Source: Verrucomicrobiota bacterium
GTDB lineage: Bacteria; Verrucomicrobiota; Verrucomicrobiia; Opitutales; Seribacteraceae
Assembly: GCA_027622665.1 (NCBI GenBank)
Contig: JAQBYT010000005.1
Span: forward strand, 32,001 to 96,000
Direction: 5' to 3'
DNA: 64,000 bases
Made by a program: the position numbers and the translations under genes. Numbering within the stretch: the first letter of the stretch is position 1; each line of letters opens with the position of its first letter. Below the pieces are notes generated by a model. The model made no database searches and was not told the origin of the DNA. It was given only the letters and a program-made list of their open reading frames with translations. Below are positions 1 to 34,269 of the stretch, in pieces.

Positions 1-735
1 TAGATTTCCCGCTTGCATCTCGAGATAGACTGAGGTTGGAAGGACTTCAGTTCTCATGCGGGTGGATCCGGCAAATACTAAAATAGGGCCGAACTCGCCT
101 AGCGATCTCGCCCAAGCAAGGGTGCCCGCCGCCAGAATCCCTCTTTTCGCCTGAGGCATGACGACGAGCCAAAAGGCTTTGCCTCGGTTGCAGCCCAAGG
201 TAAGAGCCACTTTTTCATAACGGGTCGGTATCTGGTCGAATGAGATGCGCATGGCTCTTGCGGCAAAGGCGCATGCAACCATGAATTGAGCTAGAATGAC
301 TGCAGGGATTTCGAATACGACCCATTGGCTAGTCCACGAAAAAGGTGCAAAATTAAATAGTGCCAACAGAGATATGCCAATGACCAGAGGAGGCAATACG
401 ATCGGAATGTCCAAAACCGTATCAAGCAAGCGTTTTCCCGGGAAGTCGAAGCGGGAGGTTAGGTAGCCTAGCGGAACCGCGACCCATAGGGACAGTAACG
501 TAGAGAGAGAGCAAGAAAGTAGGCTAAGCCCAATGGAATATTGAATTTCTTTGCTTCGCAGGGCAGACAACATCGACTCGGCGTCCACGTAGGCAAGGTC
601 TGCCGCAATCATGGCGACGATGATCACTACATAGGTTCCGCTTAGGATTGAGAGCCCGACAATGAATGGTACGTCCGACCCCGGTCGAAAGCCGGGTGAG
701 TCTGTAACGACATTGCCGTTAGTCGATTGCATCAT
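1..735 (-). CDS. modB: Molybdate/tungstate ABC transporter permease (3' end runs off the window)
   Basis: Not in the ORF track. Manual translation from ATG 735 gives MMQSTNG...LLDTVLDIPIVLPPLVIG...YEKVALTLG...LAWARSLGEFGPILVFAG, with ModB/CysT motifs. It lies directly downstream of modA. Confidence 0.9.
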   Translation of the reverse strand, partial: MMQSTNGNVVTDSPGFRPGSDVPFIVGLSILSGTYVVIIVAMIAADLAYVDAESMLSALRSKEIQYSIGLSLLSCSLSTLLSLWVAVPLGYLTSRFDFPGKRLLDTVLDIPIVLPPLVIGISLLALFNFAPFSWTSQWVVFEIPAVILAQFMVACAFAARAMRISFDQIPTRYEKVALTLGCNRGKAFWLVVMPQAKRGILAAGTLAWARSLGEFGPILVFAGSTRMRTEVLPTSVYLEMQAGNL

Positions 736-750
736 CGAAAAGTTTCGACT

Positions 751-2331
751 TTAGTTTACTTTTGCATCCTCCGCTTTCCAGCGGAAGCCGGCATTCAGAA
801 AACGCGCTTTGGAGTCAAGGGAAGTTATGGCCTCGACTAGCCGTCCAGTCATATGGGGGAACGCACTGTTATCGTAAACGGCAATGTTTTGCGTTGCTCG
901 GGCGATAGGGTCATTGATGGCAATCGTCTCGAATTGGCCTTTGCTTAGGTTTTGGCAATTCGCCAGGTATACGAGGGCGATGTCCAGTTTGGGATGACCT
1001 TCCATTTGCAAAATTAATTCATGGGCCGTGGGAGTGGTTACTTCCCATGTTCCGTTTGCCTTGATTTTCTCGTTTACACCAGCCTTTGCAAGGAGCTGCC
1101 AGGTGAGGTCTCCCAGCGTGGAGATTTTTTGATCCGTGGTGCCTAGAGATAAATCTTGCCGACCGAGGTCTTCGAGAGTCCGTAAGTTCTTTGGGTTCCC
1201 TTTGCGGACAAGCATTACGATGTCCGTGCTTGAGACGTCGCGAGCACCGCTGAATAGCGAATCGACCTTCCCCATATAGGAGGCATCGCATGTGAGAAAG
1301 GCATCGGGCATGGCTGTCTTCGCTTTGCTCATGTCAATGGCTTTGATGTTGGCGACGAGCGAGCCACAGCCGGCAAATTGCTCGATGATCGCACAGCCTT
1401 CTCTCTTCTCAAAATCCCTCAAGGTTTGAGTAACTGCTTCTCGATTAACTCCGCCGCAATAAATGATTAGTTCGGGCTTCTCTTTCCATTTATCTCCTGC
1501 GACTCCCATGAAGTGATGTTTTGCGAAGTGCATTTGACCCTTCGATGGCGCAGCGAGATATCGAGCGAAAAAAAGAGCTTGTCTGGCTTTTTGCGAAGAA
1601 GATGAAACATTTGCCGTTATGCGGGAGCTAACGTTAGCCAATTCGGGAAGGTTGTGTATCTTGAGGCCGAATTGTTTTGCGGTGGTGTTCCAAAGAAAGC
1701 CGGCTTGCACGATATCTGAGGCGACGACCGCGGCCGCCGCATCGGTCACGCGAGGTGAAGCGGTTTTCTTTGCTGCGTCGAACATTTCCCACTTGCCGAG
1801 CTTTTCAAGAGTGGCCTTGGTTGTTTTTCCGACACCGGCAGCTTCATTGCAAAGAACAAAGGGCACTTCCAGCGCGAGGAATTCATCCAATGACGAAAAG
1901 GCTAAATTTTCTTTTGGGGATGAGGCTATAACGAGATTGAAAGAGGCCAACTGAATGGATTCGGCCGTGAGCCCTTTTTCTCGAGCTCGGTTGGCGAAAG
2001 ATAGATCGGCGGGGATATAAAGGTCAGCTCGGGATTTGTTGCTGTCCCGGTCAAGTTGCAATTTGCCCTCAAGCGCACCACTTGAATCGTAGTCGAGTGT
2101 TATCTTTACTCCGAATTCTTTCTGAAAAGCGATAGCTGCTGCTTCCACGGGCTTCCGTATTCCTGCCGCGCAATAGACGATCAAGTCTTCGGGCGAGGTT
2201 TCCACTTCGGGAAACTTGTGCCATACCGCGATCATCGAGGCTAGAACGAAAATGGATACGAGCGACAAAGTGACCCCGCCATACCATGGCGTTCGCCAAC
2301 GCTTGTCTTTGTCCGGATTGAAAGGATTCAC
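751..2331 (-). CDS. modA: Molybdate-type solute-binding protein with two tandem ModA domains and an N-terminal membrane anchor
   Basis: Two ModA-like starts: IVYCAAGIRKP..DYDSSGALE..ADLYIPAD and IIYCGGVNRE..FAGCGSLV..PDAFLTCD..VRKGNPKNLRTLEDL. Hydrophobic helix at about aa 18-37. Confidence 0.85.
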   Translation of the reverse strand: MNPFNPDKDKRWRTPWYGGVTLSLVSIFVLASMIAVWHKFPEVETSPEDLIVYCAAGIRKPVEAAAIAFQKEFGVKITLDYDSSGALEGKLQLDRDSNKSRADLYIPADLSFANRAREKGLTAESIQLASFNLVIASSPKENLAFSSLDEFLALEVPFVLCNEAAGVGKTTKATLEKLGKWEMFDAAKKTASPRVTDAAAAVVASDIVQAGFLWNTTAKQFGLKIHNLPELANVSSRITANVSSSSQKARQALFFARYLAAPSKGQMHFAKHHFMGVAGDKWKEKPELIIYCGGVNREAVTQTLRDFEKREGCAIIEQFAGCGSLVANIKAIDMSKAKTAMPDAFLTCDASYMGKVDSLFSGARDVSSTDIVMLVRKGNPKNLRTLEDLGRQDLSLGTTDQKISTLGDLTWQLLAKAGVNEKIKANGTWEVTTPTAHELILQMEGHPKLDIALVYLANCQNLSKGQFETIAINDPIARATQNIAVYDNSAFPHMTGRLVEAITSLDSKARFLNAGFRWKAEDAKVN

Positions 2332-2389
2332 AAGCTCCTTAATCTAAGGGATTGATCGGTTGTCCATCAATTGAAAAAGGGTGGATTTC

Positions 2390-3121
2390 CTAACTGCATA
2401 CGAGGCAGTCGACCCTGCGTGTCACATCGATTTTTCGTATATTGAACCGGTTGGCATCGATAAGCATCATCTTTCCTTGGCTGGTCGATCCAAAACCCGC
2501 GATCAGCTTTAGGCCCTCCATCACTCCGATGTTTGCGACGAGAGCGGAAACTGCTCCGAACACGGGAAATTGACGTTTCCAGTGGGGTGGCGTTTCAGGG
2601 AACAGGCAGGCCAGGCACGGGGTTTCACCCGGCACGATGGGCATGACATGCCCTTCGAGGCTGTACATTGCGCAATCGACCATAGTTTTGTTTTGTCGTA
2701 CGCACTCCCGGTTCATCAGGAATCGCTCTTCGAAAAGCGGTGCGCTGGCGAAGACGACGTCGGCTCTACTTACAAGCGCCGCCGCATTGGTTTCGCTGAA
2801 ATTTTCGTTATGAATCTCCACCTCCACTTTTGGATTAAAGGCGGCAAGGGTTTTGGCGGCACTTTCTACGCGTGGTTTCCCCAGCCCTTTCCATTGCATG
2901 AGGATTTGTCGATTCAGGTCATCCTTTCGCAGGTTGCCAGCGTGAACCAATATGAGTTTGCCGATGCCGGCTGCTGCTAAGGCGAAGGCGATGGGGCCTC
3001 CAATGCCCCCGACTCGGGATACGAGGGCAGTTGTGTTTCGAAGCTTCTCTTGGCCTTGTTCGCCGAACCCGGGCACATCCAGTTGCCATTCGTAAATGGC
3101 GCGATCTTCTTCAGTCAGCAT
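2390..3121 (-). CDS. HesA/MoeB/ThiF family E1-like adenylyltransferase (HesA-type)
   Basis: VGGIG nucleotide-binding loop, DDLNRQIL, GKPRV, and Zn-binding CLAC and C-terminal CLVC motifs. Confidence 0.9.
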   Translation of the reverse strand: MLTEEDRAIYEWQLDVPGFGEQGQEKLRNTTALVSRVGGIGGPIAFALAAAGIGKLILVHAGNLRKDDLNRQILMQWKGLGKPRVESAAKTLAAFNPKVEVEIHNENFSETNAAALVSRADVVFASAPLFEERFLMNRECVRQNKTMVDCAMYSLEGHVMPIVPGETPCLACLFPETPPHWKRQFPVFGAVSALVANIGVMEGLKLIAGFGSTSQGKMMLIDANRFNIRKIDVTRRVDCLVCS

Positions 3122-3193
3122 GGAGGTAGTCTAATTTCGGCAAAGAAGGGGGGAAGGCAAAAGGAAAGGAAGTTTGATTTTTGTCCTTAGATC

Positions 3194-3991
3194 CTAATTT
3201 TTTTCGTAAGTTGTCCAAGTTCCTTTTGCATAGTCCCAAAACTGCCGTGCGTTTTCTCTTTCCTTGTAGTAAAGCCATTCCGATGTGGAGTGACGGTAGA
3301 AAAATGGGTAAAGTGAGCTGCCCGTGTAAAGCCAACCAAGTTGCCCGTCCCACATCCATAGAGCCGATTCGTCGGCACCCGAAACGAATAGCCATCCGTG
3401 CTTGAGATGATAAGCCCATCCATCTCCATTGTCATAGAAATCTCCGAACCATTGTGAACTTTTAAATCCCGCGGCGAAGGTGTCCGTGGTGAGGTGGGAC
3501 CATGGGGAAGCGGCTTTAGCTTCTTCAATTTGCAGCATCAATGTGTAAGCCGAAGTCGACGGCCCTTCGCGATTTGGCCAACGGTACCCTGTGATTTGAA
3601 TTTGATATTCACCTGCCGAGGGAAGGGTTCCGGAGATGCTGGGGTTTGCGATGTCACCGTTGAAAGTTAAGCCGTCCGGCAAACCTTGGATAAGATAGCT
3701 TTGAGCTTGGTGCCGTAGAGTGTAAAATTCAAAGGAGTAGGAGTCCCCCGCCGAACCTGAAGCAGGGTTTTCGCTATTTGCTTTTACATAGGTAGTGGCT
3801 CCCGTTAGCGCGTGTGGCAGAGTTGTGGCCGCTGCTGCGGGCAAGAGAGCCCGAAGTGTTTTAACATGTGCGGCAATCGGAGCGAAAAAGGTCGAAAGGT
3901 GTTTACCGAATGGCAAGATCGGCAAGCGTTGAAGAAGCATGGCCAATGTCATGCATAGGATTTTTGCCCTACTTTTCATCTTTAGTTGCAT
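3194..3991 (-). CDS. Exported protein with a TGAT motif, a putative Ig (He_PIG-like) domain and a Trp/Gly/Tyr-rich C-terminal domain
   Basis: GLPDGLTF..ISGT.P.AGEY Ig signature; SQWFGDFY..GWAYHLKHGWLF..LWMWDGQLGWLYT repeats. Start overlaps the DUF4266 stop. Confidence 0.7.
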   Translation of the reverse strand: MQLKMKSRAKILCMTLAMLLQRLPILPFGKHLSTFFAPIAAHVKTLRALLPAAAATTLPHALTGATTYVKANSENPASGSAGDSYSFEFYTLRHQAQSYLIQGLPDGLTFNGDIANPSISGTLPSAGEYQIQITGYRWPNREGPSTSAYTLMLQIEEAKAASPWSHLTTDTFAAGFKSSQWFGDFYDNGDGWAYHLKHGWLFVSGADESALWMWDGQLGWLYTGSSLYPFFYRHSTSEWLYYKERENARQFWDYAKGTWTTYEKN

Positions 3992-4233
3992 CCGCAGCCA
4001 CCACCTCCTGCTCCGCGACCTCCTCGGGAGGCTTCCCGGCTGTAGAAGGCGTGATCATTCATCTTAACCGCCAATTTGTCTCGATCCGGTCGCATGAGGT
4101 AGTCGGCGAGGTATCCCCTTTGCAGGACGCTCACAGTGGGCTTGGGCGAGCAACCACCAAAGGTAATGGCCGTTAAGACGAATAGCAAAAGCCGCCAAGA
4201 TTTCTTAATTCCTTGTGTCGTGCAGGTATTCAT
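3982..4233 (-). CDS. DUF4266 small lipoprotein
   Basis: Lipobox FGGC; QRGYLADYLM..HAFYSREASRGG..GGGCGCN C-terminus. Start moved to ATG 4233. Confidence 0.85.
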   Translation of the reverse strand: MNTCTTQGIKKSWRLLLFVLTAITFGGCSPKPTVSVLQRGYLADYLMRPDRDKLAVKMNDHAFYSREASRGGRGAGGGGCGCN

Positions 4234-5191
4234 AAATGCCTTTTGTCCATTCAACGCCGTTTCGGTTTTGTATGCAACCTTCCGCTCCGAAAAACCTATC
4301 GATTCTAGCAAGCCCTCGATCCGTTCCATCAAGCAAGGCGCAGGTCGACAGAACACCTGCTTCCAGACAGGAGCGTGAGATGACGGTTGCCGACAGACAG
4401 TTGTTGCTCGTTGGGAAACCTGTGCGATGATCGATCAAGTGGCCGTACCTTTTGCCGTTCTTTTCGAAAAACCTTCGATAGTTCCCCGATGTCGCGACAG
4501 CCATGCCGGAAACCGAAAAAATCCGTTTTGCTTGGCCTTGCTTTCCAGGATCTTCAAGACCGACTCGCCATGCAGTCGCGTCGGGGGGAGAACCTTCGGC
4601 AAAAACATCGCCTCCAAAGTCGATGAGAAAATCTTCCAGCCCGTGCTCGCGGGCCAACTCGGTTACTCGGTCAACGGCATATTCTTTGCCAAAGCCTCCG
4701 AAATCTAGTCCCATCCCTGTTTCGGGCAGGAAGATGGAGTGGTTCTCTCGATGAACTTTCTTCCATCCGATTTTTGAAAGCGCCTCGCTGATTGCTGATT
4801 TGGAGGGGATCTGCGGATTCTCGGCTTTAAAATCCCAAAGGCGGGAAAGGGGAAGGGTGGTGGGATCAAAGAGCCCTTCCGTCAAAAAATGGAGGGTTTC
4901 GCACAGGTCGAAAAGGTGAATGTCTACCTCGTCGATTACAACGGGGTTCCGACCGGCGGCATCATTGATCCGGCATATTAGGCTGTCGTCCCTGAATCGG
5001 GAATAACGGGCCTCAAAACGGTGCACCCAATCGAGGGCGTTTTTTCGAAAGATATCGGCAGCGACCATCGAATTCGCCGTAAAGAGTATTTTGCAATGGG
5101 TGCCCATGGCAGGAAACTGCAGACGAAAGAGACCGTCAGCCAAGACTTCAGGAGGAATTTTAGATGAAGAGTGCATCCTCAGAACTCCCAT
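4205..5191 (-). CDS. apbE: FAD:protein FMN transferase
   Basis: AMGT, FDPT, LDFGGFGKEYAVD, DFGGD, ATSGNYRR and YGHLID motifs. Confidence 0.95.
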   Translation of the reverse strand: MGVLRMHSSSKIPPEVLADGLFRLQFPAMGTHCKILFTANSMVAADIFRKNALDWVHRFEARYSRFRDDSLICRINDAAGRNPVVIDEVDIHLFDLCETLHFLTEGLFDPTTLPLSRLWDFKAENPQIPSKSAISEALSKIGWKKVHRENHSIFLPETGMGLDFGGFGKEYAVDRVTELAREHGLEDFLIDFGGDVFAEGSPPDATAWRVGLEDPGKQGQAKRIFSVSGMAVATSGNYRRFFEKNGKRYGHLIDHRTGFPTSNNCLSATVISRSCLEAGVLSTCALLDGTDRGLARIDRFFGAEGCIQNRNGVEWTKGIYEYLHDTRN

Positions 5192-6336
5192 TGCAGGCCA
5201 ACGGTATAAATATCCGCGTCCGGATACATAAGGGGTGAGGTTACTCCGTCACGGCCTTTCATGTCGTACCTCTCGTAGGCCAAGTCTAGGTTGATGTTGT
5301 CACCTTTGAACATCGTCAGCTTCAGGCCGTAGGCGAGACTCTCCATTTTGGAAATCCGATAGTCTGCCGAATAATGGGGCCCCAACCCCGTGGGAGGAGC
5401 TCCGGAATTTATTTGGGATTCGTCCAAGATCGTGACGTAATAATCAGCCGCTGACTGATTATAGTATCTCAGCAAGGGTCGGACGACAAGATTTTCGCCA
5501 AAGCGCTGGAACCACTGTACTTCGAAGGTGTTGCCTCGAATACCGGAATCGTCGGCAAAGAATCGGTAACTGCCTTGGAGGCTAGAACGCAAGGACTCAA
5601 TGTAGCGAGTTCCCTCGACAAAGACGACGTATGCATTGCGGGCATCTGGGCGGTTTTCAGGTGTTTGCCGAAGAATTTTGGTGCCATGCACCGTTGCGTG
5701 GTAGGCAACGTTTTTGTACGGATCGCTCAAATAACCTGACGGGCGAGAATACGAAAGGTTCACCGCCAACGTAGTCTTGGGGTCGAGGACACGATGGGCA
5801 CCCAAGATGACCTCGGGGGTTCGCTTGGTTTGCTCGTCGAATCCCGGGTATCCTATCATTTGCGTATCCACGGTGTCGTCGAGGTAGGAAATCCCGGCGC
5901 TTAGAGTGAGAGTTTCTTCCGCATATTGACGAGCCAGTCGAACGGCATAACTACGCGAAAGGTAATCGGGTTCATGACTGAGTCCGAACTCGAATGATAA
6001 GTCGTATTCATCGGTTTCTTTCGAAAGGGTGACCACTCCGGCCCGTCTTGTCTCTTCGATCGGGTGGGAAAGCCAGTCGGATTCAGTGGGCGGCAAGCCT
6101 ATGGGAGTGGCCCCCGACCACGTATCCACAATGCCCACGACATCAAGGCTCCATTCTTCCGTGAGGGCTGTTTCCGCTTCGGCGTACCATGAGCGAACGT
6201 GAATCCTATCCCCTTCCTCGACCCATTCGCGATACTTGGCTCGCAATGCCTTTTCGGCGGTGCTCTTCCGGGTGACCAGTACGAGCAACGCGGCGACCGC
6301 CAAGAAGCGAATAGCTCTAATTGCGCTCGTCTTCAT
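5179..6336 (-). CDS. DUF3570 outer-membrane beta-barrel with a flavinylation motif
   Basis: DTWSGAT, HEPDYLS, GYLSDPYK, ENRPD.R and SADYR motifs; C-terminal QWEF; in an operon with apbE and DUF4266. Confidence 0.85.
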   Translation of the reverse strand: MKTSAIRAIRFLAVAALLVLVTRKSTAEKALRAKYREWVEEGDRIHVRSWYAEAETALTEEWSLDVVGIVDTWSGATPIGLPPTESDWLSHPIEETRRAGVVTLSKETDEYDLSFEFGLSHEPDYLSRSYAVRLARQYAEETLTLSAGISYLDDTVDTQMIGYPGFDEQTKRTPEVILGAHRVLDPKTTLAVNLSYSRPSGYLSDPYKNVAYHATVHGTKILRQTPENRPDARNAYVVFVEGTRYIESLRSSLQGSYRFFADDSGIRGNTFEVQWFQRFGENLVVRPLLRYYNQSAADYYVTILDESQINSGAPPTGLGPHYSADYRISKMESLAYGLKLTMFKGDNINLDLAYERYDMKGRDGVTSPLMYPDADIYTVGLQWEF

Positions 6337-6490
6337 TCGGGGAGAGCCTTGCGAAAGGGTGAGGTTCGGTCAAGCTCTGCAAGTCCGTATTGCTATCGGA
6401 TTGTCTGGACTTGTTTCTTTCCCTCAGTTGTCCTGCAATCCTATCTTGCCGAAATTCGGCTTACTCGCGAGGAATCGTTTACTTGATTAT

Positions 6491-7189
6491 ATGAATTGGA
6501 AAAAACGCATATTCGTTGTCGACGATGAGGAAGATCTTACCGACCTTCTGCAATTCCAATTGAAGCGCGAGGGATTCAAAGTGGAGACCGCGAACGATCC
6601 ATTCGTGGCTCTAAGCGTGGCCCGCGACTATGGGCCGGATTTAATCGTGCTGGACGTCATGATGCCCGACTTGGATGGCTACCAACTGCTGCGCATGTTC
6701 CGATCCGACCACCAGTTGACCGATGTTCCCGTGGTCATGCTCACGGCTCGAGCGGGGGTGGAAGACCGGATCAAGGGGCTTGAGAGCGGTGCCGACGATT
6801 ACATGTGCAAGCCATTCGAAACAAAGGAACTGATTCTGCGCATCCGTTCCATTTTGAAACGGAGCAGTGAACAAAACCGAGCTCATTCAGGGCGAATTGC
6901 CATAGGCAACGTCGCCATCGACGAGGAAGACCATTCCGTGAGCATTGGCGGTGTGGAGATTCCCTTTACTGTGACCGAGTTCAAGCTGCTTCAGTTTTTC
7001 CTTAAGCGTAAGGGTAGGGTGCAAACCCGCGAGAACCTCCTTTTGAGCGTTTGGAAGTTCGATGCCGAAGTCGAGACTCGCACCGTAGACGTTCATATTC
7101 GCCGACTGCGGAAAAAGATGGAGACGGCCGACTTAGAGATCGAGACGGTGCGTGGGGTTGGATATCGTTTGGCGGTAAAAGCAAAGTAG
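6491..7189 (+). CDS. phoB: OmpR/PhoB family response regulator (PhoB-like)
   Basis: VVDDE, LDVMMP, LTAR, GADDY.KPF, and wHTH RTVDVHIRRLRKK..IETVRGVGY. Phosphate-gene context. Start set at ATG 6491. Confidence 0.8.
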   Translation: MNWKKRIFVVDDEEDLTDLLQFQLKREGFKVETANDPFVALSVARDYGPDLIVLDVMMPDLDGYQLLRMFRSDHQLTDVPVVMLTARAGVEDRIKGLESGADDYMCKPFETKELILRIRSILKRSSEQNRAHSGRIAIGNVAIDEEDHSVSIGGVEIPFTVTEFKLLQFFLKRKGRVQTRENLLLSVWKFDAEVETRTVDVHIRRLRKKMETADLEIETVRGVGYRLAVKAK

Positions 7190-7195
7190 ATTGCC

Positions 7196-8038
7196 GTGTA
7201 TGTGGAACCATGGATCTTGTCGGCTGTCCTTCTCGGTTTTGTTTTGGTCTGTTCGGTACTTTGGCGCCGTCGGAGATCCATGGACGGAAAACCTGAAGAG
7301 CAAATTTTAGTTGATATTGGAAACGAGGAACTGAATCCTCACGATAATACCCGCAGGGATTTTGTGGCTAACGTATCGCATGAGTTGCGTACTCCGCTAG
7401 CCATTGTGAAAGGATTCGCGGAAACTCTGGACGACAGCTACGAGGAACTGTCAGGCAAGAAACGGCGAGAATTCATAGGAAAGATTCGAAAAAATTCGGA
7501 TCGTCTTTGCTCCTTGGTCGAGGATCTCCTCCATTTGGCGGAATTGGAGTCTCCTTCGCATGAACTGAGACTCGAACCCGGCAGTCTTTCAGTTGTTGTC
7601 CGTACCGTGGCAGACAGGTTGGGCGAGCGACTAGATCTGAATACCCAAAGAATACGACTGGAGCTTGCCGAGGAACGGAAGCCGATCTCCTTCGATCCCT
7701 TGAAGGTAGAGTGTGTCATCGAGAACCTTTTGAGCAATGCCCTTCGCTATGCCCGCGATTCCTCCGTTATAACTATTCGAACTATTTTTGATGAAGATCC
7801 AAAAGTGATCCGTTGTGAAGTTCAAGACGATGGCTGCGGCATTCCAGAGAAGGACGTTCCCCATCTTTTCGAGCGATTCTATCGTGTCGACAAGGGACGT
7901 TCCCGGGAGAGCGGTGGCACGGGCTTGGGTTTAAGCATCGTGAAGCATATCGTGGAATTGCATGGCGGCGCGGTATCCGTTCGGAGTGAGCTCGGTGAAG
8001 GAACGATCTTCTCCTTTAGCCTGCCCTGCGGTTCCTGA
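7196..8038 (+). CDS. phoR: Short PhoR-like histidine kinase (one TM, DHp and CA domains, no sensor or PAS domain)
   Basis: RRDFVANVSHELRTPL H-box, NLLSNA, DDGCGI, FERFYRVDKGRSRESGGTGLGLSIVKH. Confidence 0.8.
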   Translation: MYVEPWILSAVLLGFVLVCSVLWRRRRSMDGKPEEQILVDIGNEELNPHDNTRRDFVANVSHELRTPLAIVKGFAETLDDSYEELSGKKRREFIGKIRKNSDRLCSLVEDLLHLAELESPSHELRLEPGSLSVVVRTVADRLGERLDLNTQRIRLELAEERKPISFDPLKVECVIENLLSNALRYARDSSVITIRTIFDEDPKVIRCEVQDDGCGIPEKDVPHLFERFYRVDKGRSRESGGTGLGLSIVKHIVELHGGAVSVRSELGEGTIFSFSLPCGS

Positions 8039-8093
8039 ATTTACTACGCCTCTTCCCTCAATTGGGAAATTGGGAGTGAATCATCTCCTGCAT

Positions 8094-8126
8094 TTGTAAC
8101 GTTTTCTTCGCAAGATCGTAATTTTA
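8094..8126 (+). promoter_or_regulatory. Possible degenerate Pho-box array upstream of the porin
   Basis: GTAAC (8096), TTCGC (8107) and GTAAT (8118) at 11-bp periodicity, between phoR and the porin. Confidence 0.35.
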
Positions 8127-8179
8127 ATCTGCTATTATAAATGGAAACTTTAAACCATTCACAATCCGATAACAGTAAA

Positions 8180-9298: not shown

Positions 9299-9341
9299 AT
9301 GAAGTATCATTTTACCGAAACATCTAAACCTGGTCTGAAAA

Positions 9342-11174: not shown

Positions 11175-11204
11175 CTCTGCCGCCGGTTTCCGTTTGGCAA
11201 AGCC

Positions 11205-11633
11205 TTATACGGTCGATTGCACCCACTGCTCGACTCTGTATCTGATGAGATCGCGGATTTCGCGGGTCCGCTCCAATTTTTCTTCCTCCGCGACTTGCAA
11301 GGTAGAGGGATCAGGGAATCCCCAATGCAATCGCTTGACTGCCTCCGGGAAGGTCGGGCATCTTTCCGCGGATGTCTCGTCGCAGACGGTTATTACATAG
11401 GTGAACTCTTGGGCCCGGCGAATAAAATGCTCGACGGAGTCGCAAGTGTTCTTCGAAATATCCAAACCCACTTCTTGCATGGCTTCGACGACGATGGGGT
11501 TCAGTTTGCCTGGCTCGATGCCTGCGCTTTCGGCTTCGAATCTTCCCTTGCCGAATTGATTGAGGAAAGCTTCCGCCATTTGTGAACGAGCACTGTTGTG
11601 AATGCATACGAATAAAACCTTTTGCATCCTCAT
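11205..11633 (-). CDS. arsC: Thioredoxin-coupled arsenate reductase (LMW-PTP fold)
   Basis: CIHNSARSQMAE P-loop, VITVCD..CP resolving cysteines, HWGFPDP. Confidence 0.9.
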   Translation of the reverse strand: MRMQKVLFVCIHNSARSQMAEAFLNQFGKGRFEAESAGIEPGKLNPIVVEAMQEVGLDISKNTCDSVEHFIRRAQEFTYVITVCDETSAERCPTFPEAVKRLHWGFPDPSTLQVAEEEKLERTREIRDLIRYRVEQWVQSTV

Positions 11634-11785
11634 ATACCAAAGCCTACTTATCTGAATGGTCAAGCCATGGAGATTGAGTATTGTGGTGGTAGTCTGTAAC
11701 TAATCCGTCTTTTTGAGGATCATATAAGCGATAAATCAAAAGTTTTGTTTCATCCGGCTTGCCACGATGAGCCTATATCGTTGCG

Positions 11786-12484
11786 ATGTTAGATGAAATT
11801 ATGCCCTTTCTGGAAGTCAGTCACTTACGCAAGAGCTTTGTTTCGCCTGATGGCGGGAAGTCTCTCGTTGTGGACGTAGAAAGTTTTTCCCTGACTGCCG
11901 GAGATCTCTTCGGCATGCGGGGCGAGAGTGGTTCGGGCAAGACGACGTTCCTTCATCTTTTGGCGGGTATACTTCGACCGGACGAGGGATCCGTCATTAT
12001 AGACGGGACCGAAGTGTCCGAATTGAACGAGGCCGCCCGCGATCACCTCCGGGCTTCTGCAATCGGTTACGTCTTCCAGTCTTTCAACCTTCTTCAGGGT
12101 TTTACCTGTCTCGAAAACATCATGCTCGCCATGTCCTTTGCCGGGAAGGTGGACGAGACTCGAGCCAAAGAGTTGCTCGATAGGGTAGGCCTTTCTCACC
12201 GTTTGGCTCATTATCCCCGTCAGCTTTCCATTGGGCAGCAGCAACGCGTGGCCCTCGCTCGGGCCTTGGCTAATCGTCCCAAGTTGGTATTGGCCGACGA
12301 GCCAACGGGCAACCTCGATCCCGGCAATGCTCGCAAGGCCCTCGCTCTCCTCCGAGAACTTTGCTCCGATGCCGGGTCGGCTCTCCTCCTCGTTAGTCAC
12401 GATGAGAACGTGATTGGCGGTTTTGAAGAAAATCTTGATTGGAGTGACCTCAACCGAGCCTTCGCCGAGGCGATGAACGATTGA
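11786..12484 (+). CDS. LolD/MacB-type ABC ATPase
   Basis: [33 protein letters not shown]. Confidence 0.93.
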   Translation: MLDEIMPFLEVSHLRKSFVSPDGGKSLVVDVESFSLTAGDLFGMRGESGSGKTTFLHLLAGILRPDEGSVIIDGTEVSELNEAARDHLRASAIGYVFQSFNLLQGFTCLENIMLAMSFAGKVDETRAKELLDRVGLSHRLAHYPRQLSIGQQQRVALARALANRPKLVLADEPTGNLDPGNARKALALLRELCSDAGSALLLVSHDENVIGGFEENLDWSDLNRAFAEAMND

Positions 12485-12488
12485 ACCG

Positions 12489-13709
12489 ATGTTGCGCTCC
12501 GGTCCATGGGTAATCCTCTTCCTTGCGATCCGCGGGTTGCGGCAATATGCCTTTTCCACGGCAGTGGCATCTCTTGCGATTGCCTTGGCGGGTGGCCTGT
12601 TTCTTGGAACTTGGAAAATCAAGGAGGAAGCTAAAAACGCTTTTTCTCGTTCTTCGGGTGGCTACGATGCCGTCCTCGGGCCAAGAGGTTCCAAGCTGCA
12701 ACTCGTACTCAACGGCCTTTTTCATCTCGAGGCCTCGCCTGGTAATCTTTCATGGGAACAGTATGAAATCATTCGTGATACTCGAGGCGTAAGCGAAGCC
12801 TACCCAATCGCCGTGGGTGACAACTATCTAGGCTTTCGTCTTGTCGGAACGCTTGCCGAGATGTTTGAAAAGCACGAATGGCGAAAAGATCGGAAATACG
12901 TTGTAGAATCAGGCGGTCGGCTTTTTACCGACAATGCGAAAGAAGCTCTTGTCGGAGCCTTTGTCGCTCGTAAGCTTGGATTGAAGGTGGGCGACAACTT
13001 TCATCCCTATCACGGTCTCACCTTCAAGGAAGAGGCGAAGCACAAGGATCTCTATGTCGTTGTCGGCATACTCGAGGCTACCGGTACCCCTGGCGACAAG
13101 GTTATATGGATTCCGATCAAGGGTATCCAGCTTATGGATGGGCATAACCCAAAGACCGCTACCGATGTCAGTGCCGTTCTTCTTAACCTCAAGGGTGCTG
13201 CCGGCTTCATGCTGGATATGAAGTACAACAAGCAAGGCAATGTAGCCACACTCGCTTGGCCTGTTGCGGGCACCCTTGCTAGTTTCTTCGAGCGACTCGT
13301 TTGGTTTCAGCGTGTGCTTGAGATTATAGCCTATCTTGTCGCCTTTGTGGCGGCCTGCGTCATTCTAGCTATTTTGCGAAACGCCATGAACGAGCGTCGG
13401 CGAGAGATCGCCATTTTGCGTAGTCTCGGCGCTCGGCGCTCTACGGTCACGGCGGTCGTTCTCGCCCAGGCCGGACTGATTACTCTGCTTGGGGTAGTGG
13501 GCGCCGCCTTCGCCTATTTGGGTATCGGCTTTCTCGCGGCTTCCGTGATACGCGAGCAAACGGGCGTGCTTCTCGAGCCTTTCACCTATGACCCGAGCTT
13601 CTTTTACGTTCCAATAGGTATGCTTGCCGTTGGGTTGTTAAGCGGTTTGTTGCCTTCTCTCCAAGCTTACCGGTCCGATGTAGCCAAGAACCTCGTCCAG
13701 CAGTCTTGA
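12489..13709 (+). CDS. FtsX/MacB-type ABC permease (ZrgC-like)
   Basis: GPRGSKLQLVLNGLFH, PIAVGDNY.GFRLVGT, HGL, NERRREIAILRSLGA. Confidence 0.88.
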   Translation: MLRSGPWVILFLAIRGLRQYAFSTAVASLAIALAGGLFLGTWKIKEEAKNAFSRSSGGYDAVLGPRGSKLQLVLNGLFHLEASPGNLSWEQYEIIRDTRGVSEAYPIAVGDNYLGFRLVGTLAEMFEKHEWRKDRKYVVESGGRLFTDNAKEALVGAFVARKLGLKVGDNFHPYHGLTFKEEAKHKDLYVVVGILEATGTPGDKVIWIPIKGIQLMDGHNPKTATDVSAVLLNLKGAAGFMLDMKYNKQGNVATLAWPVAGTLASFFERLVWFQRVLEIIAYLVAFVAACVILAILRNAMNERRREIAILRSLGARRSTVTAVVLAQAGLITLLGVVGAAFAYLGIGFLAASVIREQTGVLLEPFTYDPSFFYVPIGMLAVGLLSGLLPSLQAYRSDVAKNLVQQS

Positions 13710-13820
13710 ATAAGTGAAGTCAGTGAAAGTCCTTTAAGGCTATATTGTTCTAAGTGGTAGATGCTTTGCACCGCCCGATGCTTGCAATAAAGCCTCAAGT
13801 TCGATTAACTCTTCTACTTT

Positions 13821-14426
13821 GTGCATCACTTTGATTTTTCCGTGAAGACTTATTTTAAAGCATTCTATTGGAGATTGTTTTCGATCTCCGGACTTGCCTT
13901 TTTCTTGGGTGCTTGCGGCGCCGAGGACGGATTTGTGGATGAAGGGAAGAATGCCTCTCCATCGTCCCAACAGGATTACCTTCCCGAAATTGCCCGACCA
14001 TCCTTCCCCAAAGTCAATTTCGGAGTCCTTACGGGTTTTCGGTATAATGTGAATTGGGACACCGATGGCAGGAGTCCCGACCAAGCCGCCTTTGCGCGCC
14101 GCGTACCTTCTGCTGCCCGCAGCCTGCATGGTCGTCGGGTCTCTGTGGAAGGCTATATGATTCCCGTGACCCTTGTCGAAAATGATTCCAAGACTACCGA
14201 GTTTCTTTTGCTCCCCGACACCAAGGCATGTTGCGAAGGAAAGACCCCAAAGCAAAACGGTTGGATCCTCGTGAGTACTCCGCCCTTTGGCGAAAAGCCA
14301 CAAATAGACAAACTTTTGCGCGTCACCGGCGAATTCACAGTCAAGGAAAGGTGGAGCCCTGCAGACGGTTTCTTCAAGGGTCTGTATCATATGACTTGCG
14401 AAACGCTCGCTCCCGTTGCCTTATAA
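13821..14426 (+). CDS. DUF3299-like lipoprotein (ZrgD-like), paralog 1
   Basis: Lipobox LGAC; LHGRRVSVEGYMIP..TEFLLLPDTKACC..P..NGWILV. Confidence 0.75.
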   Translation: MHHFDFSVKTYFKAFYWRLFSISGLAFFLGACGAEDGFVDEGKNASPSSQQDYLPEIARPSFPKVNFGVLTGFRYNVNWDTDGRSPDQAAFARRVPSAARSLHGRRVSVEGYMIPVTLVENDSKTTEFLLLPDTKACCEGKTPKQNGWILVSTPPFGEKPQIDKLLRVTGEFTVKERWSPADGFFKGLYHMTCETLAPVAL

Positions 14427-14449
14427 CTGGAGTAACCGGAATTTTGAAA

Positions 14450-15280
14450 ATGAAGCCCTCAATAACCCTTACCGTTTTTATAACCTGTGGGTTCTTCCTC
14501 ATCAGTGGTTGTGGCGATGACGCTGGCGAAAATCATGCATCAGGCCCGCCACCAAAAGGGGATCCTATTGTCGGCGAACCGATTCAGGACGCTAAGGGAA
14601 ATTCAACTATTGCGGAAACCGAGGGTTTGCTTGGCCCAAAAGATAATCCCTCAAACACGAAGCCTTCACTTCCTGTTGAAGGTGAAGAGGTATCGGTCGT
14701 GGAAGGTGAAATTGCGAGTGTCGGAACGCCCGACGACCCTTTCGTTGCCCCCAAGGAAAAGGAAATCGTAGAACTGCCTTTCCCTCCTGGTTCGGACGCT
14801 AACGCTTCTACTGTCAATATTCCGGAACCAGTGGTTTCCCTCCTGCCCCCCTTGCCTAAGGGAAGCGGTTACGCTCCTCTAAGTTTTGCCAGTATGTCGA
14901 AGTTTGCCTACGAGGTCGACTGGGAACAGGACGGCATTAAATTTGACATCTCGGCCTTTGCTCGTCGCGTACCCGTTACGGTCCGTCAAATGGATGGGCT
15001 AGATGCAGCCGTTGAGGGCTTTATGATCCCCACAGTAGTCAACGAAGACAATAAGGTCACCGAGTTCTTGCTACTCCCCGACCAAATGAGTTGCTGTTTT
15101 GGCAAAGCTCCCGAGGCCAACGGTTGGGTTGTCGTGACGGCACCCAAGGGAGTTGAAATCATGATGGACAGGATTATTCGAGTGACCGGCACCATGGCCG
15201 TGGAGGAAAAGTGGGACGAAGAGTTCTTTGTAGGTCTCTACCATTTGACCTGCGACAAGATTACGGGCCCGGCGCTCTAA
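14450..15280 (+). CDS. DUF3299-like lipoprotein, paralog 2, with a Pro/Glu-rich linker
   Basis: Lipobox ISGC; VEGFMIP..TEFLLLPDQMSCCFG..P..NGWVVV. Start set at ATG 14450. Confidence 0.75.
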   Translation: MKPSITLTVFITCGFFLISGCGDDAGENHASGPPPKGDPIVGEPIQDAKGNSTIAETEGLLGPKDNPSNTKPSLPVEGEEVSVVEGEIASVGTPDDPFVAPKEKEIVELPFPPGSDANASTVNIPEPVVSLLPPLPKGSGYAPLSFASMSKFAYEVDWEQDGIKFDISAFARRVPVTVRQMDGLDAAVEGFMIPTVVNEDNKVTEFLLLPDQMSCCFGKAPEANGWVVVTAPKGVEIMMDRIIRVTGTMAVEEKWDEEFFVGLYHLTCDKITGPAL

Positions 15281-15289
15281 CTCTTGCCA

Positions 15290-15568
15290 TCATCCGCCTG
15301 ACATCGGGGTGATCAAAATTACCTCCGATTCGTCTTCTAGCGAAACATCGGCCCTAAGGTCGACTTGGGTGCCATTTACGGCTACGACCAAGGTCGGTAC
15401 TGGATTCCCGTCTTCATTCACAACGAATTTCGAAAATTCGGGACCATGCTGCTCGGAAAGATTTCTAAGTAAATCCACAAGCCCTACTCCATCGGCGAGC
15501 TCGATGCCTTCCTCGGAGGTTCCTGCAGCAGCAGCAAGCTGCGAAGTATAGCGAAGTGCGATTTTCAT
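15290..15568 (-). CDS. MoaD/ThiS family sulfur-carrier (ubiquitin-like) protein
   Basis: 92 aa, VAVNG, C-terminal TPMSGG. ATGA overlap with the ABC ATPase. Confidence 0.9.
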   Translation of the reverse strand: MKIALRYTSQLAAAAGTSEEGIELADGVGLVDLLRNLSEQHGPEFSKFVVNEDGNPVPTLVVAVNGTQVDLRADVSLEDESEVILITPMSGG

Positions 15569-16245
15569 GATACGCTTTCGGCGATACTTCCTTTCTCCAT
15601 CCGAATGGAACGGGATGCCCGTCCCGCCGCGCGTTTGTCGTGCGTGACCATGAGCACCGTGCCTCCTTCCTTAGCGAAGCCGGCAAGGTGATCAAGGATC
15701 GAATCGGCATTCTCGGGATCGAGATTGCCGGTCGGTTCGTCGGCCAACAAAAGTTGGGGTTCGAGAAGCAACGCTCGGGCGAGCGCTACTCGCTGCTGTT
15801 CGCCTACGCTTAAGCTGGATGGCACATGGTGTCGGCGATCGGTTAGGCCAAACTTTTCAAGTAAAGCCTTCGCCTTGTCTTCTGCTCCGGGAAGGGCTCG
15901 AGCTAGGGTGGGGGCGAGCACGTTGTCCAATGCGTCAAGGTAGGGGACGAGATGAAATTGTTGAAAGACAAAGCCGATGTGTTTCGCCCGGATGCTTGCT
16001 CTCCTTGCGGCGTCTATTTCGTAGGGCCGAGTTCCCATGATTTCCACTTCCCCTTGATCGGGTCTCAACAATCCTCCCGCGATCAAAAGAATGGTCGATT
16101 TTCCGCAACCACTGGGCCCGCCCAGAGCTACGAATTCGCCCGACGCGATCTCTAGACTCATGTCGTTCACTGCCGCTACGGACGTGCCTTTTGGCCCCGC
16201 AAACGTCTTGTGAACATTTGTCGCTCTCAGAGTAAAGTCACTCAT
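15565..16245 (-). CDS. LolD/MacB-type ABC ATPase
   Basis: [33 protein letters not shown]. Confidence 0.93.
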
Positions 16246-17551
16246 TGCGAAGGATGGTCGCTGGATCTCTGTTAGCGGCTTGCAGCGCGGGCAACCATGA
16301 TGCCGCGCAAGAGAGGACGGGTACGGATAAAAGGACTAGAGGAATATCTCCCCGAAGAGACCTTAGGTCGAATTCATGAAGTGTAGCTTTGAGGGTTTCG
16401 CTTAGGAGAAAAGCGAAAAGCAGTGTCAAGCCGGCCCCAAACAATCCAACGAGAAACGCTCGCCCCATCAACGCGCCCAAGATGGAACCCGTGGAAATTC
16501 CCATGGCTCGGAGGATGCCGATTTCAGCTTGACGATCTCGAGAGTTGGCAAAGGAGAGAAAGGAAACCCAAGCCATAGCACCAAGAATGACGACAGTGAG
16601 AAGAGCCGTGTACTTTTCCTTGTCCTCGAATCTTAGCTGGGTGCGGTCAGCTTGAAGTTTGATCGCTTCGGCCTTTTTAGAAGCAATGGAACTTTGACTA
16701 TGTTTCTTCGCCTTGTTTCGAGCTTCCGCTCGGGCTAGGGCTTTGCTTTCGGTTTCGATGACTTTCGTCCCAGGTAGTATACCAGCTATTTCACGACGAA
16801 TCTCCCCGAGGCGGTCAATTGTTGCGCAATTGCATTCCAGCGCCTTGATGGCATTGATGCGTCCCTCCTCCCCAAGCAGTTCCTGACATTCGCCGAGGTG
16901 CATCCAGACGGTGATGTCGTCCTTTGTGCCTCGTTCCGGATGACACTTGTCGACGATGAATTCGCGACCCATGAATACGGTGGCGTTCCCTTCCTTCAGA
17001 TCGAGCGATCGGTGGAGTTCGTGACCGAGTACGATCCGCCCTTTCCGCACGGGGTCAATGAGTGGTTTCTTTGGATCACGGTGCGCGATTGGCACTTCGC
17101 CGCGAATACCGATTAGGATGACGGTGCGTTCCCGCTCGGGCCACTTCAACTTGCGGGTAAGACTCGGCAGGAGATGGTTGACGGTTACGATGTTGCTTTC
17201 AGCCAAGGTGGCTGCATAGGACTCGGGCATTGTCTTTGAAGCGAACCCTTCTGCGTAAACTTCGCTAAGCTCTTGTCCTTCGGGAAAGATGAAGATGTTG
17301 AAACCGAGTCCCTTCATCGTTTTGCGGACATCGTCCTCGTAGGCTTTCATCTCTTTCGTGAACTTTGCTTCCATGGCGGAGGTTTCTTCGTTCATCCTCG
17401 TTAGCATTTTCGAAGTTCGCAAGTCGTGCGCGCCAAGTAACGCGACCACTGCTACAAGTCCGGCTACACTCGTTGCTATCGTTGCCACGGCGAGTCCGAA
17501 GCTTAGCTTGCGGTGCAAAATTTCCCGGCCGATAAGTCGCCTGAGGTTCAC
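16238..17551 (-). CDS. FtsX-like ABC permease with a periplasmic LECNC motif
   Basis: N-terminal TM, large periplasmic domain, DRQAEIGILRAMG, C-terminal ANRDPATILR. Confidence 0.85.
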   Translation of the reverse strand: MNLRRLIGREILHRKLSFGLAVATIATSVAGLVAVVALLGAHDLRTSKMLTRMNEETSAMEAKFTKEMKAYEDDVRKTMKGLGFNIFIFPEGQELSEVYAEGFASKTMPESYAATLAESNIVTVNHLLPSLTRKLKWPERERTVILIGIRGEVPIAHRDPKKPLIDPVRKGRIVLGHELHRSLDLKEGNATVFMGREFIVDKCHPERGTKDDITVWMHLGECQELLGEEGRINAIKALECNCATIDRLGEIRREIAGILPGTKVIETESKALARAEARNKAKKHSQSSIASKKAEAIKLQADRTQLRFEDKEKYTALLTVVILGAMAWVSFLSFANSRDRQAEIGILRAMGISTGSILGALMGRAFLVGLFGAGLTLLFAFLLSETLKATLHEFDLRSLRGDIPLVLLSVPVLSCAASWLPALQAANRDPATILRNE

Positions 17552-18756
17552 TGCTCGCGATTTTTGTTCAGTACAAAAGTGCCAATCAGCAAGATGCCCG
17601 AGACCAACACAACGGCAACGACGAGGCCGTTCGAAATGGGAGGTTCATCCGTTGCCGTCTCATGTTCGACTACCTCCGAAGAAGATGCGTTCGCCTCGGG
17701 TTCAGCACTGTTTGCTCCGGCATCATCTTTTGCGGGTTCGTTGGCCGCAATGAGATCTTCGACTCCCGTCAGCGGGGGCAGCTCCTTCTCGGCGATTACG
17801 GAGCTTCCTTCAAGGGCAGTCCACCAATCGGCTTTTACCAGTATGTCCATTCCCGGGTTTTGATTCTTAACTTGGCAAGAGCATGCGCCGCAAAGATAAC
17901 CGCAGTCGGCCAGTGCGTTTTCCTCGCTTATCCCGGCGCTGATAAGTGGGGGCAAGACACGACCTTTGCCAAATACCGGGAACAGCATCGGTTTGTCCTC
18001 CATTTCCTTGTCGAGAAGGTCGTCTTCCAAGTGCAGAAGCATTGCCCGCAATATGACTTCTTGAGGATCCTTGCGAGAGAGGCGCAAGATTGAAAAGGCG
18101 ATCTTGAGGGGAACGGAGGATTCCAGAATGTTTTCTTCGTCTCCGGGGCCGAGAAGAAGGTTTGGATCGTCAAGAGCACTTTGCTGAATAACGCCTTCAG
18201 GAACAGAAATCTCTTTTTCTGCAATCTTGGCGTATTTTTCCAGTGTTTTGAAAAGTGCTTCGTCTTCTTTCTGGTTCCCGCTTTCGAGGAAAAGCCAGAC
18301 TGCTGAATCGCCGGAAAGAATTCGTTTTACCAGTTCTCGCCGGATCGGAGAGTCCAGAATTTGGTTGATGTGATTTCTTGTGAAGTTCCCGTTCCAGATG
18401 GGATCAGCGTCCTGTTCGAAGGCTTCGAATGGGAAAAAAAGGTGAATAGAGACCGAAGCGTTTTGGTCACTGTGAAGTTTTTTCCATCGTGCAAATTGCT
18501 TTTCCTCCTTCGCCAGATCGAGAGCTTCGAAACGAAGGTTTATCATCGGGCCGTTCTGTCCGACTAAGTTTTCTTCCAAATAAGTGACGTTTGCTTGCTC
18601 CTCGCTAGTTAGGTTGCCGTCATGAACAATAACCAATTGGTAGTGATCGGGTTGCCATCGTTCCAAGGCGTAACGAAATACGGGCACCTGACAAGCTTCC
18701 GTGATCACAGCAGCAACTAGGAGAATTAAGCAAACTGTGGTTTTGCGAGCATTCAT
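17548..18756 (-). CDS. Exported, C-terminally anchored hypothetical protein with CQVPVFRYALERW and CGYLCGACSCQVK motifs
   Basis: Signal peptide ending in TEA-C, C-terminal TM helix, GTGA overlap with the permease. Confidence 0.75.
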   Translation of the reverse strand: MNARKTTVCLILLVAAVITEACQVPVFRYALERWQPDHYQLVIVHDGNLTSEEQANVTYLEENLVGQNGPMINLRFEALDLAKEEKQFARWKKLHSDQNASVSIHLFFPFEAFEQDADPIWNGNFTRNHINQILDSPIRRELVKRILSGDSAVWLFLESGNQKEDEALFKTLEKYAKIAEKEISVPEGVIQQSALDDPNLLLGPGDEENILESSVPLKIAFSILRLSRKDPQEVILRAMLLHLEDDLLDKEMEDKPMLFPVFGKGRVLPPLISAGISEENALADCGYLCGACSCQVKNQNPGMDILVKADWWTALEGSSVIAEKELPPLTGVEDLIAANEPAKDDAGANSAEPEANASSSEVVEHETATDEPPISNGLVVAVVLVSGILLIGTFVLNKNREQ

Positions 18757-18966
18757 GAATTGGATGTCCACTAAAGTGTCTCGTTCGGGATTTAGGAGGT
18801 CAAGCAGATCTTCCCCAAGACGAGTTTTTCCTTACCGAGGACTCCGAATGCACAATTTCCGAAATCCCGATGGATGAGAGAATCATGAGAATCATTCGAT
18901 TTCGGTGAGGTGAGATGAAATTTGGAGTATTGAATCTCGGTCGGAAATTAATTCAGTAAAAGCGGT

Positions 18967-19620: not shown

Positions 19621-19663
19621 TGTAGTTTGGGTTGATGGTTAGCGACGGAGCAAGAAGGGTTGC

Positions 19664-33208: not shown

Positions 33209-33239
33209 GCTAAGACTTGATCAAAGTGTACCAAAAGGG

Positions 33240-33310
33240 TTGACACAAGATTATTCGATGACGAGACTTTGACTAATCAAAACCAAATCTTTCACTACAG
33301 AAAATGAAAC
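33240..33310 (+). promoter_or_regulatory. Sigma70 promoter plus TroR/DtxR-type operator of the tro operon
   Basis: TTGACA (33240)-17 bp-GAGACT. Inverted repeat TTTGA-CTAA-TCAAA at 33268-33281; weaker TTTC-ACTACA-GAAA 22 bp downstream. Confidence 0.75.
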
Positions 33311-34265: not shown

Positions 34266-34269
34266 TAAT

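Follow-up and report, generated by a model that had tools for sequence, protein, structure and literature searches.

Molybdenum and tungsten are used almost wholly in pterin cofactors or nitrogenase clusters, and the NosDFY-NosL proteins bring about the maturation of nitrous oxide reductase, NosZ. Here we describe two operons in a 64,000-nucleotide stretch of a Verrucomicrobiota genome (assembly GCA_027622665.1, contig JAQBYT010000005.1, positions 32,001 to 96,000; C61 in our contig numbering, and hereafter the window) that encode a molybdate-type importer with a double ModA, a HesA-related E1-like protein (E1), a MoaD/ThiS-fold sulfur carrier, an ATP-binding cassette (ABC) system with an FtsX-type permease, and a predicted exported cysteine-motif protein that we call CysP. 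The genome (G000; other G- and L-numbers denote the sampled genomes and loci) is 4.5 Mb and 93.5% complete, and its close kin are Opitutales metagenome-assembled genomes. The two operons almost certainly make up a single gene system, conserved in Verrucomicrobia and Planctomycetes and split in this genome, and we propose, with a probability of roughly 0.43, that the system builds a pterin-free Mo- or W-sulfur site on secreted four-cysteine propellers encoded elsewhere in the genome.

The system can be likened to NosDFY-NosL/NosZ maturation combined with a HesA-type supply step but belongs to neither. As in the Nos case, a metal-sulfur site on a secreted beta-propeller would be assembled by an ABC machine together with a periplasmic cysteine-bearing protein, but here the ABC belongs to the MacB/FtsX type and the carrier is a thioredoxin-fold protein, with cysteines as candidate ligands, and a Mod importer and a MoaD/E1 pair are attached; NosD, NosY, NosL and NosZ are absent from the Pfam and NCBIfam matches of the parts and of the propellers. 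The hesAB genes lie within cyanobacterial nif clusters (available part of PMC4284476). In Paenibacillus, the accessible portion of one study (PMC6361004) reports that nitrogenase needs HesA and nitrate reductase does not, that a hesA mutant is partially rescued by molybdate or cystine and not fully by moeB, and that HesA serves a pterin-free Mo-S cofactor.

A first-pass annotation of the window had read an E1-headed importer operon and a carrier-exporter operon some 12 kb away as halves of one pathway, and most of its observations on layout are confirmed. The named genes of both operons are all present as judged by family matches and open reading frames (Table 1). On the minus strand, operon 1 reads E1, double ModA, ModB and ModC, co-oriented with gaps of 58 and about 15 bp and an overlap at the ModB/ModC junction only; operon 2 reads CysP, FtsX, ABC ATPase and MoaD, with stop/start overlaps at its junctions (GTGA, ATGA, ATGA) as had been claimed. 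E1 and MoaD are 12.2 kb apart, and the intervening operons (an ApbE-DUF3570-DUF4266 cluster, a PhoBR-porin-Na/Pi group, ArsC, and an ABC-FtsX-DUF3299 operon) are unrelated. This separation, together with the presence of Moco (molybdenum cofactor) genes and one Mo enzyme in the genome, is what would be expected if a spare Moco or thiamine carrier merely had an ordinary ModABC and some unrelated exporter as neighbours. The relatives largely refute this, and we regard it as very improbable. In two Opitutia relatives (L008 and L011) there is an unbroken CysP-FtsX-ABC-MoaD-E1-ModAA-ModB-ModC array, in L010 the DUF3299 operon sits between the two halves, G080 has two copies in the order MoeZ-CysP-FtsX-ABC-ModAA-ModB-ModC-E1-MoaD, and in the Planctomycetota G375, G400, G459 and G354 the whole set is present in other gene orders.

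The co-occurrence of the two halves is similarly tight in samples of 301 genomes of the window's phylum and 201 of Planctomycetota. CysP is present in 18 of the 301, and the HesA-like E1 (E<1e-60) in eight, all eight of them CysP-positive. Among the 201, CysP is found in 28, E1 in 22 and both in 18; three of the four exceptional E1 genomes encode a divergent CysP upstream of FtsX with the same cysteine layout, which raises the E1 genomes with CysP from 18/22 to 21/22. The model for this divergent form was applied to 30 genomes and has no match in 17 control Planctomycetota. The E1 threshold was set afterwards at a gap in the scores, and the weaker matches so dropped (G001 and G023 in the phylum, G342 and G324 in Planctomycetota) are frames of 332-476 aa with a MoeZ-like look. 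Because kin genomes are not independent, Fisher values for these associations overstate their strength. For 49 CysP loci, many of them truncated by contig ends, we counted the parts lying no more than 12 kb away: FtsX is found at 37, ModA at 20, MoaD and ModB at 17 each, E1 at 14 and a propeller at 12; CysP, FtsX, MoaD, E1, ModA and ModB occur together within this distance at 11 of the 49, from 10 genomes. Contiguity in two phyla and co-occurrence thus both support the reading of the two operons as halves of one pathway, and both stand against chance neighbourhood, as do the separate housekeeping carriers and the invariant substitutions of the E1 clade described below.

The importer is likely to take up molybdate or tungstate. 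Among NCBIfam families ModB scores highest with TIGR01581 (187 bits, cut-off 210), followed by 141 with modB (cut-off 183) and 122 with WtpB, ModC scores 212 with WtpC (cut-off 440) and 170 with modC (cut-off 285), and the double ModA scores 51 with modA (cut-off 62.5); all three parts score higher with the molybdate/tungstate families than with the sulfate families. The order and families of the genes are those of ModABC/WtpABC, from which the system differs in its scores below the curated cut-offs, in having a conserved cysteine pair in a double, fused binding protein, and in its retention by genomes in which no Moco genes are detected. The nearest solved sequence to the double ModA is ModA 2h5y, with which domain 1 aligns, including the S-S-x-A-L stretch. 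In domain 2, C322 takes the place of the invariant S84 of domain 1 and is joined by C348; this pair is present in 23 of 24 homologues. At L008:7601-11175 there are two tandem double-ModA genes, one of which has no domain-2 cysteine pair.

The distribution of the importer suggests a user of the metal other than Moco. Its ModB type is present in 18 of the 301 phylum genomes, of which 13 are CysP-positive. In six of the 13 (G089, G140, G250, G253, G269 and G299, which are 89-95% complete and represent six genera), MoaC, MoeA and nitrogenase are not found over cut-off, two to four independent markers being jointly missing in each genus; searches of G089, G269 and G299 also found no MoaE or PF00384 enzymes. 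The CysP-negative importer genomes have MoaC in 5/5 and MoeA in 4/5. G350 and G355 are not counted as lacking Moco because they encode MoeA and a molybdopterin enzyme, respectively. A propeller is present in five of the six Moco-less genomes and adjoins ModA in G253, and G089 (95% complete, 7 contigs) holds CysP, FtsX, the importer, MoaD, E1 and a propeller. The keeping of a molybdate-type importer without detected Moco or nitrogenase genes points to another use. Two candidate partners were rejected. The AOR-family link raised in the first-pass annotation fails in this genome, in which a search found no AFOR_C. Nitrogenase was set aside as a client, with no PF00148 in this genome and matches over cut-off in none of five and then in two of 26 genomes; nitrogenase is present in G080 and G350. 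The one clear Mo enzyme of this genome is YdeP/FdhF-like and lies near FdhD (the xanthine- and sulfite-oxidase families were not searched).

E1 is related to HesA and has departed from the canonical catalytic residues of this fold. In an alignment with Escherichia coli MoeB (1jw9), R14, G38, D62 and D130 correspond to W12, R36, H60 and P128 of E1, and the MoeB C187 loop is replaced by a WK-R-x-F-P loop with no C187 equivalent. W12, R36, H60 and P128 are present in all 29 homologues from the Planctomycetes-Verrucomicrobia-Chlamydiae (PVC) group, in which N-R-Q is retained; the features expected of a ThiF-type enzyme, a glycine-rich loop, N-x-x-R-Q and Zn-binding CxxC pairs, are kept, with G38, G41, N70, R71 and Q72 in 29/29 and the terminal CxxC in 26/29. 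E1 thus lacks the Mg-binding Asp130, the Arg14 finger and the Cys187 loop of the MoeB type. The available part of a study of these enzymes (PMC13139853) states that MoeB Asp130 is predicted to chelate Mg, that its Tcd2 equivalent is essential, and that the Arg finger is dispensable. Since E1 has no Asp130 equivalent, plain adenylation of MoaD by this protein is doubtful; the E1-like fold named in the first-pass annotation stands and the label of adenylyltransferase is unproven.

The best plasmid matches of E1 are cyanobacterial HesA proteins, one encoded in a nifW-hesA-hesB arrangement and the other among modAB and molybdate-binding genes. In a tree of 39 rows with only two HesA, a midpoint root and a long-branch warning, the PVC E1 clade (95/94) is sister to the two HesA (99/97) and apart from MoeZ. 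E1 and these nif HesA proteins share 44% identity, the D-x-N-R-Q motif, the lack of MoeB D130 and C187 equivalents, and a tie to Mo transport genes. They differ in that W12, R36 and P128 of PVC E1 align with R, G and H in the two HesA, that E1 is paired with a dedicated MoaD, none being evident at the two HesA loci viewed, and that neither this genome nor most of the carriers tested have nitrogenase. In this genome E1 lies outside any nif cluster, and a role in serving nitrogenase is not indicated.

MoaD appears to be a carrier dedicated to this system. A profile search finds three ThiS-family carriers in the genome, one in a moaC-mobA-moaD-moaE cluster on contig C55 and one in a thiamine-like cluster on C40 (with genes that we take to be thiG and thiH) beside a 377-aa MoeZ. 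With a MoaD-MoaE pair and a ThiS-MoeZ pair placed separately, the MoaD in the window is a third carrier, and it scores 44 bits with moaD_arch, under the cut-off of 49.5. The first-pass annotation had found no moeA or moaE in the window, and both lie outside it, the sole MoeA match of the genome and a moaE being on C55; the separate housekeeping partners are assigned by gene context, no tree of MoaD having been made. The MoaD-MoeB-MoaE and ThiS-ThiF-ThiG relays likewise combine a Gly-Gly carrier with an E1 fold, but both sit elsewhere in this genome, and the catalytic residues of the window E1 are altered relative to the MoeB relay. No linkage of the window MoaD to MoaE or MoaC is seen, and the MoaD-E1 pair is present without MoaC, MoeA or MoaE in G089 and G299; a search for MoaE found none in G089, G299, G269, G314 or G350. 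A canonical MoeZ or a ThiS-ThiF fusion adjoins the MoaD-E1 pair in G080, G284, G035, G495, G089 and G355. In the last two of these a ThiS-like-ThiF fusion gene is immediately upstream of MoaD-E1 (L079:10451-11314 and L091:3759-4529).

Giant secreted proteins resembling pyrroloquinoline quinone (PQQ) propellers recur beside CysP loci, and these are probably the clients of CysP-FtsX-ABC. They contain the motif C-x35/38-C-x19/20-C-x-C, and C590, C628, C648 and C650, together with R274, H275, R277, H550, R603 and R625, are invariant in 107/107 sequences. A search gave 1695 matches at E<=1e-30 among 8000 scored, and databases label these proteins only as BamB or PQQ-like. The predicted structure (predicted local distance difference test, pLDDT, 91) has a methyltransferase-like domain and a propeller, with structural matches to YxaL (Z 28.3), Rv3035 (27.8) and BamB (25.1) at 12-19% identity; PQQ dehydrogenases match in fold alone (Z about 20-21, 14-15% identity). 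The fold is that of the PQQ-like eight-bladed propellers, including tetrathionate hydrolase, from which the candidate clients differ in their four invariant cysteines, methyltransferase-like domain, second propeller and, in many members, LamG or malectin lectin domains. Rv3035-FecB was considered as a precedent for metal uptake and set aside, the available portion of the published work being concerned with arabinosyltransferase support. There are four propellers in this genome (on C4, C10, C31 and C44) and at least 13 copies in G223. Propeller model A2 matches 12 of the 301 phylum genomes, all 12 CysP-positive, and 8/8 are positive when the window's own genome and three seed genomes are left out; propellers occur in 33 of the 201 Planctomycetota, of which 23 are CysP-positive, seven have a divergent CysP (two of them weak) and three have neither, giving 30/33 once the divergent form is included. 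No internal stops that would indicate selenocysteine at the cysteine motifs are present in any CysP or propeller match in the two genome samples.

The propellers also bear on the identity of the cargo. The importer could instead take up a sulfur oxyanion such as thiosulfate or sulfate, or some other anion, and the system could place a persulfide or a non-Mo metal-sulfur site (Cu-S, for example) on sulfur-handling propellers. This would account directly for the Moco-less genomes, and it fits the top Foldseek match of the propeller, tetrathionate hydrolase (E 9.5e-18), the copper-bound Sco protein among the fold matches of CysP (Z 7.5), the sulfatases near some loci, and the scores of the importer parts under all Mo/W cut-offs. 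However, identity to tetrathionate hydrolase is 16-17% and VIA-align ranks this match under YxaL, Rv3035 and BamB, all three importer proteins fit molybdate/tungstate better than sulfate families, and the nearest relatives of E1 are Mo-linked HesA; we consider such a cargo rather unlikely. Given one system with propeller clients, Mo/W-sulfur is the cargo that we favour, with moderate confidence.

A reversal of direction also has to be weighed. Thioacid metallophores of pseudomonads are made by E1/sulfur-carrier pairs, and the propellers, with TonB receptors, could capture scarce Mo/W or a thio-metallophore made by MoaD/E1, which CysP and FtsX would strip for import by ModABC. TonB-dependent receptors do adjoin several CysP loci, the invariant Arg/His set of the propeller could bind an oxyanion, and the importer is likely the sole Mo uptake route of this genome. 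Such scavenging would have no detected Mo user to feed in the six Moco-less genomes, and as many as 13 or more propeller paralogues per genome, with varied lectin domains, resemble a family of enzymes and not a receptor; neither an acyl-ligase nor a JAB gene recurred in the annotated loci, for which no systematic search was made. We think inward scavenging quite improbable.

CysP has 1307 homologues and no Pfam or NCBIfam match, and Pfam matches none of 35 alignment members. Its only invariant cysteines are C22, directly after a signal-like stretch, and C292 and C294 in a G-x-C-S-C motif; the two motifs are found in 114 and 115 of 120 homologues. The first-pass label of a cysteine-rich protein is accordingly corrected to one with cysteine motifs, and the protein is also anchored by a C-terminal membrane segment (372-399); cleavage of the signal and a periplasmic location are suggested by hydrophobicity. 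The predicted structure (pLDDT 84) has thioredoxin folds at 37-135 and 136-292, with middling Z values (the best 8.9, root-mean-square deviation 2.6 over 100 residues); the top matches are thioredoxins and b-b' fragments of protein disulfide isomerase (PDI) and ERp57 (Foldseek E 4e-4 to ERp57 b-b'). The FtsX permease, with hydrophobic segments at 16-43 and from 314 onward, carries its CxC in 50 of 54 rows, which include the same gene from overlapping loci, and several of the exceptions are second paralogues. Four extracytoplasmic parts of the system thus have conserved cysteine motifs. At L040 and L042 two tandem FtsX paralogues follow CysP, one with the CxC and one without the second cysteine, possibly forming a heterodimeric permease.

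These features admit a simpler function in thiol-redox folding, in which CysP, as a PDI-like protein, and the FtsX CxC would form or reshuffle disulfides of the propellers or export a thiol, the importer and MoaD/E1 being separable and mostly for Moco. The four cysteines of the propeller could pair as two disulfides, the distribution of CysP follows that of the propeller more closely than that of E1, MoaC is present in most E1 genomes, and the top fold matches are of this kind. CysP has the thioredoxin fold of Dsb and PDI proteins but no CxxC at the usual position at the start of the first helix. Moreover, folding would leave unexplained the importer, MoaD and E1 beside CysP in two phyla and in many gene orders, the importer kept in the six Moco-less genomes, and the cysteine pair of ModA domain 2. 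We regard it as unlikely.

We prefer a metal-sulfur pathway in which CysP, FtsX/ABC and the propeller would be the core, and the importer and MoaD/E1 a supply module with which some genomes dispense. In this proposal, double ModA-ModB-ModC would bring in molybdate or tungstate, and MoaD would be thiocarboxylated, perhaps by the canonical MoeZ often encoded alongside. The HesA-like E1 would then bind MoaD and join sulfur and metal as a thiometalate, a step modelled on the proposed role of nif HesA in helping Mo and S to enter the iron-molybdenum cofactor FeMo-co. The MacB-type ABC would move or pass on a metal-thiol species via its periplasmic CxC, and CysP would hold this with C22 and its CxC and load the C-x35/38-C-x19/20-CxC site of the propeller. 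The lectin domains suggest glycans or other external compounds as the substrates on which the loaded propellers would act. The delivery of a metal-sulfur cofactor to an extracytoplasmic protein had been put forward in the first-pass annotation; the candidate client and the Moco-less genomes support it, with the metal, the sulfur transfer and the direction still inferred.

Several observations weigh against this proposal, of which the metal, direction and client are all inferred. Paired cysteines in the periplasm are in many cases plain disulfides, and the thioredoxin fold is one that suits a folding catalyst. The supply module is not obligatory: E1 is found in only 8/18 of the CysP genomes of the phylum and 18/28 of those of Planctomycetota, and the ModB type is missing in five of the 18 (G227, G262, G278, G293 and G295). 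The importer parts all score under the NCBIfam molybdate/tungstate cut-offs, and in G001 there is a double ModA importer but no CysP. The window's genome has no ModA-type binding protein other than the double ModA, so the importer likely supplies Moco here too, for a YdeP/FdhF-like enzyme, and most E1 genomes have MoaC (6/8 in the phylum and 19/22 in Planctomycetota). The Moco-less contrast is small (6/13 against 0/5, p=0.11) and comes from incomplete assemblies and non-independent kin; E1 is encoded in only two of those six genomes, and the MoaD/E1 thiometalate step is therefore not universal. The 107 propeller sequences are close matches (>=40% identity) of one query, and six CysP genomes of the phylum have no propeller match among the 13 candidates scored per genome; one of these, G278, holds a split propeller. 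Finally, the RNA is uninformative, since in four metatranscriptome runs contigs are spread over 15-28 of the 30 bins, with a low and flat depth and possible DNA carry-over.

If the proposal is correct, Mo/W would be used outside the known molybdenum cofactors, and the candidate user would be the secreted propellers, which form a large and unannotated family present in multiple copies in major degraders of polysaccharides. A third route of Mo/W use beside Moco and FeMo-co, with more than 1,600 secreted four-Cys propellers in PVC bacteria as glycan-acting metalloenzymes, is a tentative extension that we hold to be possible and on balance doubtful. The role of HesA becomes testable in a relative that is accompanied by a sulfur carrier of its own and not by nitrogenase. 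Should the cargo not be Mo/W, the system would still amount to a maturation machine dedicated to the propellers and offer a first way to approach them. Its newness lies in an undescribed gene combination and in two families for which there is no specific model, the mechanism being a proposal; no description of the cluster was found in the literature searched, which largely excluded subscription papers and wholly excluded supplements.

Table 1. Genes of the two operons, with positions in the window unless a contig is given.
Feature	Position	Strand	Remarks
ModC	C61:31267-31908, just outside window after ModB		best match WtpC
ModB-type permease	1..735	-	BPD_transp_1; runs 96 bp past window edge
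Double ModA-type binding protein, N-terminal membrane anchor	751..2331	-	two SBP_bac_11 stretches
HesA-related E1-like protein	2390..3121	-	Pfam ThiF, 161 bits
MoaD/ThiS-fold sulfur carrier, C-terminus PMSGG	15290..15568	-	ThiS family
LolD/MacB-type ABC ATPase	15565..16245	-	family matches
FtsX/MacB-type permease, conserved CxC (C240, C242) in periplasmic domain	16238..17551	-	FtsX
CysP, predicted exported, C-terminally anchored, two thioredoxin-like domains	17548..18756	-	invariant C22 and G-x-C292-S-C294

The remaining genes in this part of the window appear to be unconnected with the system. A DUF3570-ApbE-DUF4266 cluster (3194-6336, minus strand), presumably of the extracytosolic flavinylation type, is directly upstream of E1 on the same strand and is not seen there in L008, L010 or L011. 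It includes a 265-aa protein (3194-3991, minus strand) with no Pfam match; its C-terminal ~90 residues, possibly a sorting or anchoring domain, have matches at about 30 further sites in the genome. On the plus strand at 6494-11174 are a PhoB/PhoR-like pair, a phosphate-selective porin and a Na/Pi cotransporter; PhoBR directly follows ModC in L008 and L011. The plus-strand ABC-FtsX-2xDUF3299 operon (11786-15280) resembles the zinc-regulated zrgBCE, DUF3299 being the zrgE of a zinc-regulated operon according to the available part of PMC9817125. We rejected it as a part of the system because its FtsX has no CxC, it is not between the genes in L008 and L011, and DUF3299 is zrgE. An extra partial FtsX copy, missing from the window, is carried by the relatives L003, L004, L006, L007 and L010.

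An Rfam scan of positions 1-20000 gave no match to RNA regulators. Two metatranscriptome runs are much deeper at 18549-19000 (33 and 72) than elsewhere, which may reflect a cyclophilin transcript. Further to the right, a DtxR-type regulator adjoins a ZnuA-type ABC operon (32552-37544), and a PQQ dehydrogenase with a cytochrome c domain is encoded at 55790-57868.

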